DNA of 34,469 bases from Candidatus Doudnabacteria bacterium RIFCSPHIGHO2_01_FULL_45_18 (GTDB lineage: Bacteria > Patescibacteriota > Doudnabacteria > UBA920 > O2-02-FULL-48-8), in contig MFEJ01000019.1 in NCBI GenBank assembly GCA_001779915.1, forward strand, positions 1 to 34,469, read 5' to 3'. Below, in pieces: positions 2,351 through 34,309 of this stretch. The position numbers and the translations under genes are program-made. The notes under the pieces are model-generated. The model saw only the letters and a program-made list of their open reading frames with translations. It searched no databases and was not told the origin of the DNA. Each line of letters opens with the position of its first letter. The stretch's first letter is position 1.

Positions 2351-2428
2351 AAGATCCTCCTTATTTGCAATTTTACAGCAGATCCTATATAATATCTACA
2401 CAAGGCCCGGAAAGGCCTTTTAAAAGAG

Positions 2429-2572
2429 CCCAGTAATACAACTTCGATGCTTTTGCCGCAAATGGTTTTTATATATTAGCATCAAAATTATAGATTAAGA
2501 TTGATAATAGTTTTAGTCGTAAATCTTTGGCAAAAGCAGACAAAAACCATTTATCGAAGTTGATATACTGGG
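2429..2572 (+). mobile_element. MITE-like non-autonomous element, copy 1 (144 nt), flanked by AGAG/AGAG direct repeats
   Basis: The termini are CCCAGTAATACAACTTCGAT and ATCGAAGTTGATATACTGGG (17/20 inverted match). The first 28 nt and last ~30 nt are near-identical to the copy at 11402..11548. The flanking 4-mers 2425..2428 and 2573..2576 are both AGAG. Confidence 0.75.
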
Positions 2573-2582
2573 AGAGGCAAAA

Positions 2583-10292: not shown

Positions 10293-11391
10293 ATGGAAGA
10301 ATTATTACGAGAAATTAAAACTTTAAAAGGCCAGTTGCTCGACCTGAAGGAGCATCTTTGACCTCGCCCAGAAGAAACAAAAAATTCTAGAGTTAGAAGA
10401 TGCCATGGCAGACCCGAATTTCTGGTCAGATCAGGGCATGGCAAAATTCAAAGCCAAGCGACTTTCGGAACTCAAAAACCAGGTTGCGGCTTGGTTTGAA
10501 TTTGAGTCAGATTTAGCCGATTTAGAAGAGCTGGCCAGTATGGCGGTCAAAGAGTCGGATAAGGCAATGGATGCTGATTTAAGGGCTAAATTTAGCGTCC
10601 TAAGGGCTGCTTATGAGCAGTTTCGGCTAACGACCTTTTTATCAGCCAAGTATGACAATCATGACGCGATTTTATCCATCCATGCGGGTGCTGGCGGCGT
10701 GGATGCGCAGGACTGGGCCGAGATGCTGCTGCGCATGTATTTAAGATACGCCGAGAAGAAAAATTTTAAAACCATGGTTGTAGACCAGAGCCGCGGCGGT
10801 GAAGCTGGGATCAAAAGCGTGGTCGTGGAAATTATCGGACCATTTGCGTATGGGTATTTTAAAAGTGAGGCCGGTGTGCATCGGTTGGTCCGGCAATCGC
10901 CGTATAATTCTACCCACACCCGCGAAACATCATTTGCCCTGGTTGAGATTCTGCCTGTGATTGAACAAGGTGAATACAAACTTAATCTTGATGAAGTTGA
11001 GATTGAAGCGAAAACTTCACGCGGGCATGGCGGACAATCTGTAAATACCACTTATTCCGCGATTCGGGCCACCCATAAACCCACAGGGCTGACCGTGACG
11101 ATTCAAAATGAAAGATCCCAAACACAAAATAAGGAACAGGCGTTGAAGATTTTAGCCGGCAAACTGGTACAACTGGAAGAGCAGCGCCAGCAAGAAGAAA
11201 AATTGAAGATTCGAGGGGAATTTCACAGCGCGGAGTGGGGGAATCAAATTCGCTCTTATGTGCTGCATCCATATAAATTAGTCAAAGATCATCGCACGGG
11301 ATACGAAACTTCGGACGCGGAAAGCGTCCTGGAAGGCAATTTAGACGAATTTGTAAAAAAATATTTAGAAAAGCATATAAATTTGATATAA
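10293..11391 (+). CDS. prfB: Peptide chain release factor 2 with programmed +1 frameshift: join(10293..10358,10360..11391)
   Basis: Frame 0 reads MEELLREIKTLKGQLLDLKEHL and then reaches CTT TGA C. The +1 frame continues DLAQKKQKILELEDAMADPNFW and carries the SPYNS-type and GGQ (RGHGGQSVN) motifs. Confidence 0.96.
10347..10362 (+). promoter_or_regulatory. RF2 autoregulatory frameshift site: internal SD AAGGAG, 3 nt, then CTT TGA C
   Basis: The sequence AAGGAGCATCTTTGAC was read directly. It matches the canonical prfB recoding signal. Confidence 0.9.
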
Positions 11392-11401
11392 TAGATAATG
11401 A

Positions 11402-11548
11402 CCCAGTAATACAACTTCGATGCTTTTGCTTTTTATGGTTTTTGAAACAAGTAACTTTAATCGCTATGATTTTTGATAATATTAATCTAATGCTTTTACG
11501 GTTCGCAAAAGCGGACTCAAAAACCATTATCGAAGTTGATATACTGGG
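11402..11548 (+). mobile_element. MITE-like non-autonomous element, copy 2 (147 nt), flanked by ATGA/ATGA direct repeats
   Basis: It has the same 20-nt termini as copy 1. The flanking 4-mers 11398..11401 and 11549..11552 are both ATGA, and the right one supplies the ftsE ATG. Confidence 0.75.
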
Positions 11549-12226
11549 ATGATTAAATTCGACCAAGTTACAAAAATCTACGACAACCTCACAGCGCTTA
11601 AAAATGTCTCTTTGGAAGTCCACAAAGGTGAGTTTGTTTCGCTTGTCGGCCAATCCGGCGCCGGCAAATCCACGCTCTTATCATTGATTATTGGCGAAGA
11701 CAAACCAAACAGCGGACGGATTTTTATTGATGACATTGACGTGGCGCAGATCCGCCGTTCAGATATTCCGTATTTGCGCCGCAAAATCGGTGTGGTTTTT
11801 CAAGACATCAGGTTGCTGCCCAAACGCACGGCCTATGAAAATGTCGCCTTTGCTCTAGAAGTGTCAGGTGAGAAAACTCACGTCATAGAAAAAGAAGTGC
11901 CAAAAATTTTAGAAATGGTCGGCTTGGTGGAACGCGCGCATGCTTTCCCGCATGAAATGTCCGGTGGCGAAAAACAACGGGTGGCTATTGCTCGGGCTTT
12001 ATCTCACCGCCCAGTTTTGCTTTTGGCGGACGAACCGACTGGTAATCTGGATGCGATTAACGCGGCGGACATCATTGATCTCTTGATAAAAATCAACAAA
12101 GCCGGGACTACGGTAATTTTAGCCACACATGCCAAGGAACTCGTTAACAGTGTCAAGAAAAGAGTCGTGACGATTGAGAAGGGTCAGGTTATTTACGATC
12201 AACAAAAAGGAAAGTACATGCTATGA
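11549..12226 (+). CDS. ftsE: Cell division ATP-binding protein FtsE
   Basis: It has Walker A GQSGAGKST, the ABC signature MSGGEKQR and Walker B LLLADEPT. ftsX follows it. Confidence 0.92.
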   Translation: MIKFDQVTKIYDNLTALKNVSLEVHKGEFVSLVGQSGAGKSTLLSLIIGEDKPNSGRIFIDDIDVAQIRRSDIPYLRRKIGVVFQDIRLLPKRTAYENVAFALEVSGEKTHVIEKEVPKILEMVGLVERAHAFPHEMSGGEKQRVAIARALSHRPVLLLADEPTGNLDAINAADIIDLLIKINKAGTTVILATHAKELVNSVKKRVVTIEKGQVIYDQQKGKYML

Positions 12227-13147: not shown

Positions 13148-13591
13148 ATGAAAGTGATTTTAACCAAGGATGTGGAAGGGTTAGGACGGACGGGCGATGT
13201 GAAAGAAGTTTCTGACGGACATGCCAGAAATTTTTTAATTCCTAAGCATTTCGCGCTGCCTGCCACAAGTAGCGTGCTGGCTCGTGTTCAGAAAGAAGCA
13301 CAGGAGCGAGTTGCTAAGATTGCCAAAGACCAGGGACGGTTATTGGATTTCAAAAAGAAATTAGAAAACAGAACCATCACGATTAAAGCCAAGGCCGATA
13401 AAACCCATTTGTTTGCCGCGATTCACGAAAAAGATATCGCGGACGCAGTAAATGCCAAATTGGGAGTCGAGATTAATCCCGACATCATCAAACTGAAAGA
13501 ACCGATTAAAACTTTGGGATTGCACAGCATCGAAATCCGATTTGCCAAAGACCAGGTAGCTTTAGTACAATTACAAGTAGAAGCAGTATGA
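13148..13591 (+). CDS. rplI: 50S ribosomal protein L9
   Basis: MKVILTKDVEGLGRTGDVKEVSDGHARNFLIP is typical L9. The internal ATG was chosen because the upstream extension overlaps ftsX. Confidence 0.93.
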   Translation: MKVILTKDVEGLGRTGDVKEVSDGHARNFLIPKHFALPATSSVLARVQKEAQERVAKIAKDQGRLLDFKKKLENRTITIKAKADKTHLFAAIHEKDIADAVNAKLGVEINPDIIKLKEPIKTLGLHSIEIRFAKDQVALVQLQVEAV

Positions 13592-34234: not shown

Positions 34235-34309
34235 TGGCTGGGGAGGAAGGATTCGAACCTTCGGATGATGGATTCAGAGTCCATTGCCTTACCACTTGGC
34301 TACTCCCCA
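34235..34309 (-). tRNA. tRNA-Gln (anticodon CUG) with encoded CCA
   Basis: The reverse complement is UGGGGAGUAGCCAAGUGGUAAGGCAAUGGACUCUGAAUCCAUCAUCCGAAGGUUCGAAUCCUUCCUCCCCAGCCA. It folds as a cloverleaf with a U1-A72 pair, a GGUUCGAAUCC T-arm and the anticodon loop CUCUGAA. It is very close to the remembered E. coli tRNA-Gln2. Confidence 0.93.

Follow-up and report, generated by a model that had tools for sequence, protein, structure and literature searches.

A miniature inverted-repeat element on the ftsE start codon of a Doudnabacteria genome and the association of its family with gene starts

The prfB–ftsE junction

We have analyzed a stretch of 34,469 nucleotides from Candidatus Doudnabacteria bacterium RIFCSPHIGHO2_01_FULL_45_18 (assembly GCA_001779915.1, contig MFEJ01000019.1, positions 1 to 34,469 of the forward strand), from here on called the window, in which a MITE (miniature inverted-repeat transposable element) separates the release factor gene prfB from the division gene ftsE. 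Doudnabacteria belong to the Candidate Phyla Radiation (Patescibacteria), a group of ultra-small bacteria. Direct reading of the letters gives the prfB stop codon TAA at 11389-11391, then tagata (11392-11397), ATGA (11398-11401), the element (11402-11548), and ATGA again (11549-11552), after which the letters run on as ATGATTAAATTCGAC into an open reading frame (ORF) of 225 codons. The features of the junction, followed by two others of the window, are these:

10293..11391, + strand: prfB (RF2), recognized as an ORF with the Pfam PCRF/RF-1 domains; upstream neighbour of the insertion
11364..11392, + strand: promoter-like site in the 3' end of prfB, TTTAGA, 17 nt, TATAAT, with TG upstream (10/12 matches)
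11398..11401, + strand: left copy of the target-site duplication, ATGA; together with the 5' repeat it opens a three-codon mini-ORF, ATG ACC CAG TAA
11402..11548, + strand: MITE copy 2, 147 bp, with no coding capacity
11402..11421, + strand: 5' terminal inverted repeat (TIR) of copy 2, CCCAGTAATACAACTTCGAT, 20 nt
11442..11470, + strand: internal rightward promoter-like site, TTGAAA, 17 nt, TATGAT (10/12 matches), 78 nt from the 3' end
11529..11548, + strand: 3' TIR, ATCGAAGTTGATATACTGGG, family-wide and the end that adjoins start codons; it contains TGATATACT, which resembles an extended -10
11549..11552, + strand: right copy of the duplication, ATGA, comprising the start codon of ftsE with the first base of its second codon
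11549..12226, + strand: ftsE, 225 amino acids
12223..13140, + strand: ftsX, overlapping ftsE by 4 nt (ATGA)
2425..2576, + strand: MITE copy 1 with its duplications, the element (144 bp) at 2429-2572 and AGAG at 2425-2428 and 2573-2576

Copy 2 is built of the 5' TIR, GCTTTTGC, ..ATGGTTTTTGA, a variable centre, GCAAAAGC, TCAAAAACCAT, and the 3' TIR, and its TIRs are imperfect, with 17 of 20 positions complementary. A degenerate pattern of the ends (CCCAGTAWWWCAACTTCGAT, allowing up to three mismatches) has four matches in the window, which are both ends of both copies, and none in 100 shuffles. The two copies are alike over some 45–50 nt at each end and differ in their centres; copy 1 belongs to another subfamily, and its closest neighbour is only 73% identical. 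Folded as RNA, copy 2 gives a hairpin of -46.2 kcal/mol (z = -5.65) that ends 1 nt before the ftsE AUG. The only match of the whole window to Rfam at gathering score was the tRNA gene at 34238-34309 on the reverse strand, and the element searched with E-values up to 10 gave as its top match a plant microRNA hairpin, with 23 bits against a threshold of 140.

The ftsE start and relatives without the element

Judged by its homologues, the ATG at 11549 is the real start of ftsE. The ORF encodes 225 amino acids and most of the 120 homologues listed have 225–226; MIKFD or MIRFD stands at the start or at the continuation of all 10 homologues read, the longer ones having unrelated upstream extensions that come from gene calling, and residues 1–213 align with positions 1–214 of the NCBIfam FtsE equivalog. 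An alternative start of ftsE was considered and is ruled out by these N-termini and the profile alignment. The letters of the junction are the same in five independent assemblies (ENA and JGI) and the insertion is therefore no assembly artefact. Two contigs of the Logan collection, L004 and L005 (1-24), break inside the 3' repeat at a point 24 nt upstream of ftsE, as would be expected of a repeat family that breaks short-read assemblies at gene starts. All 14 contigs that encode an identical FtsE appear to carry the element, so that the insertion is probably fixed in the population sampled.

Relatives with 80–82% FtsE identity and the same gene order have no element; two of their contigs show a prfB–ftsE gap of 9 nt, and two others show gaps of 3 and 44 nt. 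The original prediction had proposed a comparison of this kind, and had reconstructed, by removing the element and one ATGA, an ancestral gap of 6 nt, which fits the short gaps of the element-free relatives (9 nt in L008 and 3 nt in L010). The L008 junction with its 9-nt gap reads ..ggTATAATaaaacaaaATGATCAAG / ..ctggTATAATaaaacaaaATGATCAAG and the reconstructed site of the window ..ttgaTATAATagataATGATTAAA; the two align along the 3' end of prfB, including the TATAAT that holds the stop codon, and L008 carries a homologous TATAAT..ATGA site. As a non-autonomous transposon of the cut-and-paste type, the element would have entered through a staggered cut of 4 nt at the ATGA with which ftsE begins, 6 nt past the stop codon of prfB, and repair of the gap would have duplicated ATGA, so that the ORF kept its start codon. 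Thus the prediction of a MITE inserted at ATGA on the ftsE start, with a duplication that keeps the ATG, holds in its TIRs, its ATGA repeat and its start codon; no other ftsE start has appeared, and homologous loci do not show the 147 nt to be ancestral. One could suppose that ftsE had the 147 nt from the outset, as a structured leader or a regulatory RNA, the ATGA repeat being coincidental, and the strongly stable fold would suit such a role. However, relatives of the same synteny lack the element, it is found at unrelated genes with other duplications, and it matches no Rfam family, and we regard this reading as extremely improbable.

A family of small elements

The 20-nt end pattern was scanned over one genome per species (48 loci) and over the JGI metagenomes (more than 116 loci, a lower bound); the family counts that follow are among the matches listed, and the true totals are at least those given. 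After dropping copies with identical flanks there are at least 98 distinct insertion sites, 90 of them orientable by three asymmetric end positions. Of 97 copies, 66 are bordered by a perfect direct repeat exactly 4 nt long, 17 by one of 3 nt, and three by one of 5 nt; perfect duplications of at least 4 nt are thus found in 69 of the 97 and of at least 3 nt in 86, with varied sequences. The elements measure 105–183 bp, apart from deletion derivatives of 66–76 bp, the only ORFs are short decoys, and the 20-nt ends are invariant or nearly so across copies. These are small non-coding elements with TIRs and a short duplication of varied sequence, they occupy many unrelated loci, and relatives have an empty site, as expected of MITEs; inverted ends together with varied short duplications are the signature of a non-autonomous transposon.

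At least nine copies reside in a single Doudnabacteria metagenome-assembled genome (MAG), MFEQ01. The named matches come mostly from Doudnabacteria MAGs, and others from MAGs labelled Wolfebacteria, Saccharibacteria (L024, L026, and L028), Azambacteria, and Patescibacteria, although such taxonomic labels may be unreliable. We suspect that the contigs of a "Methylomirabilota" MAG with several complete copies were mis-binned. Single matches in "Micrarchaeota" and Methylococcaceae MAGs fall in coding DNA without a partner end and are attributed to chance; by our own estimate, about nine chance matches are expected in 596 Gb. Scanning viral contigs with the element ends gave no match. Several loci considered as candidates for an autonomous partner proved to be something else: L157 is an ordinary copy with a 1-nt deletion, L034, L135, and L139 hold a remnant at secF (see below), and L038, L042, L046, L059, and L098 contain chance 20-mers in coding DNA.

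Some copies deserve a separate description. In L069, L073, L086, L128, L133, L096, and L041 a GC-rich hairpin, differing in sequence and similar in shape, follows directly on the 5' repeat; the remaining interior is AT-rich and none of these copies forms a long palindrome. Neighbouring elements also occur: in L160 (4094) one copy, whose duplication is TTGA, immediately adjoins the 5' repeat of the next, and two copies are found within 486 nt in L132 (266-751). One old copy at a CCTA site is common to four genomes (L018 3392, L019 2451, L039 7690, and L130 1515); a promoter of the TTGACG-17-TAAGAT type stands about 20 nt upstream of it, and it is not followed directly by a long ORF. Rfam gave no match on three loci with this shared copy, which may belong to the 5' part of an unannotated transcript.

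Start codons

By our convention, the end reading ..GTAATAC.. is the 5' end of the element and the one reading ..GATATACTGGG the 3' end. The 3' end (..GTTGATATACTGGG) lies at offset 0 or 1 from the ATG or GTG of a long ORF at 40 sites, or at 47, about half of the 98, once ORFs cut by contig ends and unorientable copies are counted. The 5' end is on a start codon once at most, at a doubtful GTG ORF of 68 codons. Duplications at the start-codon sites are ATGA, TATG, ATG, CATG, or AATG. Nine of the adjoined genes have their N-terminus at positions 1–3 of an NCBIfam profile (dnaA, nusA, ruvA, murD, ftsW, secF, rfbB, pilC, and ftsE); the other gene starts rest on ORF length. Among the ATGs abutted by the element, 47 of 52 are real starts, against the 12–27% expected for non-genic ATGs (p below 1e-21), the lower value being the crude fraction of ATGs outside ORFs of at least 100 codons that are called as starts and the higher one (about 27%) allowing for uncalled coding space. 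Of the 33 clusters into which the element sequences fall, 17 show the habit, and some of these 17 have only their 20-nt ends in common. It is evident that the original prediction was understated in saying that ftsE tolerates or exploits the arrangement, abutment of the 3' end on a start codon being the commonest state of the whole family.

These numbers also bear on the idea of a one-off neutral accident, in which an element landed by chance on the ATGA of ftsE and has merely been tolerated. The duplication alone would account for the survival of the ORF, and most genes of the lineage have no Shine-Dalgarno (SD) motif that could be lost. Nevertheless, 47 independent-looking sites have the same arrangement with the same end, far over expectation, and the different genes rule out one inherited event, so that we give this explanation very little credence.

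Site class segregates by genome. In MFEQ01 (L011, L014, L016, L022, L033, L052, L054, and L058) eight of nine copies are on start codons, and in JAHFJG01 (L018, L047, L048, L056, and L057) none of five; nearest-neighbour copies are usually of one site class. The genome-wise classes hint at a target preference that is specific to each lineage. The start of secF carries the element in two species (L054 6786 and L062 4750), and a third (L034 on the reverse strand, L135, and L139) keeps an 18-nt remnant of the 5' repeat, the rest of the element having apparently dropped out between an ATGCTT repeat of its own and another at the start of secF. The remnant leaves the old SD-led ATG in frame with secF and would add the seven residues MPSNTTS.

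Orientation

Copies on start codons are oriented 46:1 (binomial p = 7e-13) and those 4–25 nt upstream of a start 9:1; at the -35 hexamers described below the ratio is 13:7 (Fisher p = 6e-4 against the start class). The difference between the start codons and the -35 hexamers indicates that orientation is constrained only where the element is co-transcribed with the gene.

Several causes of this rule were considered and set aside. Strand-specific RNA structure fails, since the forward strand is not the more stable one and the reverse is slightly more so. A guide encoded by the element was rejected because the longest match between interior and target equals that of permuted pairs. Coupling through a decoy ORF that opens at the left ATG would concern few sites, as this ORF reaches the vicinity of the real ATG in only 5 of 40 traceable cases, ending 5 nt past it in L054, 13 nt before it in L026, L086, and L143, and 26 nt before it in L017. 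An internal promoter is treated below. The sole universal asymmetry is found at end positions 8–10, which give TGATATACT (extended -10-like) at the 3' end only; in the 5' end the same positions give TAA, and so every ATGA-type site, ftsE included, opens with ATG ACC CAG TAA.

Promoter -35 hexamers

A second kind of landing site was found in about a fifth of the family. The 3' end adjoins TTGA followed by C in 13 sites, nine of which have TAnnnT exactly 17 nt after a TTGAC[A/G/C]-type hexamer, and this spacing makes them canonical sigma-70-type promoters. The 5' end adjoins the same TTGA motif, on the opposite strand, in seven further sites, which brings the -35 class to 20 sites, in either orientation, with the element at the upstream edge of the hexamer. 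TTGA is the duplicated sequence and the -35 hexamer is therefore rebuilt. At copy 1 of the window, which is 10 nt upstream of the ATG of secE (2583), the right AGAG restores the SD of that gene, GGGAGAGGcaaaaATG. There is a common theme in these cases, namely that the 3–4 nt duplicated restore the signal split by the insertion, be it the ATG, TTGA, or the SD of secE at copy 1.

Expression of ftsE

At the ancestral site, ftsE was preceded by TGATATAAT (11384-11392), an extended -10, followed by agata-ATG. The -10 ends 5 nt before the ATG, and the reconstructed site falls in the leaderless class, with a -10 hexamer 5–8 nt before the ATG. From its letters, TTTAGA-17-TATAAT in the 3' end of prfB is thus a candidate for the ancestral, leaderless-type promoter of ftsE. 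In Doudnabacteria loci an SD-like motif precedes only about 16% of the genes, and a -10 hexamer precedes another 16% or so, mostly 6–7 nt from the ATG with a peak at 6 nt; the leaderless-type geometry recurs at about 15–18 other start-class sites. In the window, the genes at 13148 and, on the reverse strand, 16852, 27772, and 32054 have TATAAT-like hexamers 6–7 nt before the ATG and no SD, and these hexamers suggest that leaderless mRNAs are common in this organism.

The original prediction was right that no SD stands before the ftsE ATG, since there is no GGAG-like motif (..GATATACTGGGATG), but nothing has been lost, as the reconstructed ancestor has none either (..TATAATAGATAATG); SD motifs being rare in Doudnabacteria loci, their absence at ftsE is normal. 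The window also contains the programmed +1 frameshift of prfB, with the ATG at 10293 and AAGGAGCAT followed by CTT TGA C at 10357-10363, and because of it ORF callers report prfB only from 10405. The stimulatory AGGAG of this frameshift suggests that a canonical anti-SD is present although few genes use an SD.

The mean probability of being unpaired, over the 20 nt upstream of the AUG, is 0.10 in the read-through RNA, 0.60 in the reconstructed ancestor, and 0.35 in an RNA from the internal promoter-like site (11442-11470). It had been proposed that the hairpin could occlude the start region, and these 20 nt are indeed paired in the read-through RNA; the AUG itself is just outside the stem. A transcript from the old promoter would now have its first base at the left ATGA and would carry the MTQ mini-ORF, leaving the real AUG behind a stable hairpin. 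We propose that ftsE is read from mRNA with the element as its leader, independently of an SD like most genes of the lineage, some transcripts starting at the internal site with a leader of about 72 nt that lacks the 5' arm and others reading through from prfB. SD-independent initiation on an element leader, with part of the transcripts starting inside the element, would be the likeliest present route, a proposal that we make only tentatively.

A different view is that the element works as an RNA module, its hairpin being either cleaved, with RNase III as one candidate, or opened by ribosomes that translate the decoy ORF, which would put the real AUG on a short or absent leader; a translation system capable of leaderless initiation would then use this AUG efficiently. 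Such a role would suit a stable hairpin ending 1 nt before the AUG, a left ATG that keeps all native initiation signals and opens the MTQ ORF in every ATGA-type site, and a lineage in which leaderless-type promoters are common; the Correia elements of Neisseria, moreover, are RNase III substrates (PMC2649163). But hairpin stability has no strand asymmetry and gives no account of the orientation rule, the decoy ORFs stop at scattered positions in the other site types, several subfamilies share only their 20-nt ends and have no long palindrome, and neither a ribozyme nor any other Rfam family was matched. We consider the RNA module rather unlikely.

Target choice and retention

The explanation that we prefer as a whole, with a probability of about 0.7, is that a MITE inserted on the ftsE start following the landing habit of its family, that target choice has been sharpened by selection, and that ftsE is expressed from an element leader. 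The transposase would pick start codons and -35 edges, selection would sharpen the pattern, and the fixed orientation would arise where the element is co-transcribed with the gene. In our opinion it is about as likely as not that the pattern is mainly due to target choice by the transposase, sharpened by selection; the data do not decide between this and retention. According to the latter, insertion is loose and copies persist where they are useful to the downstream gene, as promoter, leader, or operator, and in the productive orientation.

Retention would explain why about a quarter of the duplications lack WTG and are heterogeneous (AGAG, CCTA, CACG, TAAA, and others), as with a loose DNA specificity, and why orientation is locked only where element and gene are co-transcribed. 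At sites shared between species (L054/L062 and L091/L102) the terminal 45 nt are 91–100% identical, compared to 71–77% for the flanking coding sequence and 63–65% for the centre. Other points in favour of retention are that the forward promoter-like score exceeds the reverse in 29 start-class copies versus 6, and that the secF start is occupied in three species, in one of them only by the 18-nt 5'-end remnant fused in frame. On the other hand, the youngest copies (those with a nearest neighbour at least 90% identical) are already on start codons in 11 of 16 cases and few copies lie in presumably neutral 3' intergenic DNA, which together support target choice. Also, the internal promoter is neither universal nor enriched in the start class, and paralogues within a genome are more alike than same-site copies of different species, so that the conservation of the ends may come from recent spread or gene conversion and not from constraint at the site itself; this likeness of paralogues suits either gene conversion or bursts of insertion, specific to a lineage, at shared hot sites. 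Retention is accordingly a possible explanation that we hold to be the less probable one, and target choice sharpened by selection remains our preference.

Several observations weigh against the explanation preferred here. The exact empty site of the same species had no matches in the metagenome collection, so that the age of the insertion can be set only by relatives whose FtsE is 82% identical. In the loci examined no pair of TIRs 0.3–5 kb apart was found that could represent an autonomous partner, the solo ends being remnants or chance. Copies are related by descent, with orthologous or near-duplicate sites (L091/L097, L032/L124, L082/L130, and the CCTA site), so that the counts overstate independence and the independent events are somewhat fewer than 98. 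The internal promoter-like site, considered as a general cause of orientation and rejected, is present at 8/12 matches or better in only 20 of the 41 main-cluster copies, start and non-start alike with no enrichment in the start class, and is lacking in several divergent start-codon subfamilies; being so patchy, it gives no account of the family-wide orientation rule. Finally, the -10-like TATACT of the 3' repeat was rejected as a leaderless promoter, as it is 3–4 nt from the ATG, too close compared to the native distance of mostly 6–7 nt.

Implications

Our broadest proposal is a speculative one, namely that a transposon family of the Candidate Phyla Radiation (CPR) homes to gene starts and -35 hexamers in a fixed orientation and brings a portable leader to housekeeping genes such as dnaA, ftsE, ftsW, murD, and nusA. 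The homing would perhaps proceed via promoter or leaderless-start architecture, or via transcription of the target. If true, these organisms would make efficient use of a start codon that lacks an SD and stands immediately 3' of a hairpin whose terminal stem has 20 bp, for which the candidate routes are processing to a leaderless mRNA, hairpin-mediated transfer of ribosomes that began at the decoy ATG, or a promoter within the element. Target choice would mean that a DNA transposon has some means of locating gene starts, and retention that, in bacteria with the most reduced genomes, mobile DNA is rewiring essential genes at their 5' ends. In both cases, at least 47 genes provide a natural test set for SD-less translation start beside a strong hairpin. 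There is a practical side too: the repeats break assemblies (L004 and L005), and gene callers could mis-set the starts next to them.

Comparison with known systems

Full-text literature searches gave no paper linking MITEs with CPR bacteria and no published description of this element, and the phrase "start codon" never occurs in a 2024 review of prokaryotic MITEs. In its behaviour the element comes closest to two systems. One is that of the Correia elements of Neisseria (CREE/NEMIS), whose ends bear, or lie near, sigma-70-like promoters and which undergo RNase III processing (PMC2649163; review PMC10969869). Like them, our element is a MITE of about 100–150 bp with TIRs and many copies, mostly just upstream of genes and co-transcribed as a hairpin. 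It differs in duplicating 3–5 nt, mostly ATGA, TATG, or TTGA, and in its ends, which have no sequence similarity to those of Correia elements. The latter duplicate TA and carry an IHF site, and they are not known to lie against start codons or to have a fixed orientation at them.

The other is IS5, which inserts upstream of glpFK, flhDC, and bglGFB in Escherichia coli with a 4-bp duplication, at specific promoter-proximal sites and in one orientation; what it does to the gene downstream depends on sequences close to one of its ends. It is, however, an autonomous element of 1.2 kb and its sites are some 100 bp or more upstream of the promoter, whereas the element described here lies on the -35 edge or on the start codon and has unrelated terminal repeats.

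The Rickettsia palindromic elements are palindromes of about 150 bp tolerated in or at essential genes, with the frame or the gene preserved (PMC10969869). They are located inside ORFs and translated in frame, unlike the present element, which stays out of the ORF and restores its start codon. Putative mobile promoters have been described as near-identical upstream sequences before unrelated genes within or between genomes (PMC3575422). That concept covers sequence reuse alone, without TIRs and duplications, base-precise abutment on the ATG, or an orientation rule, and the promoter in our element is putative and not universal. Palindromes derived from IS200/IS605 and the REP/REPIN sequences have neither TIRs nor duplications; they have subterminal hairpins and insert 3' of a fixed tetra- or pentanucleotide, in contrast to the clear TIRs and varied duplications seen here. 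What is new in this family is the base-precise abutment to start codons and -35 edges, with a duplication that rebuilds the signal and an orientation that is locked at the starts.

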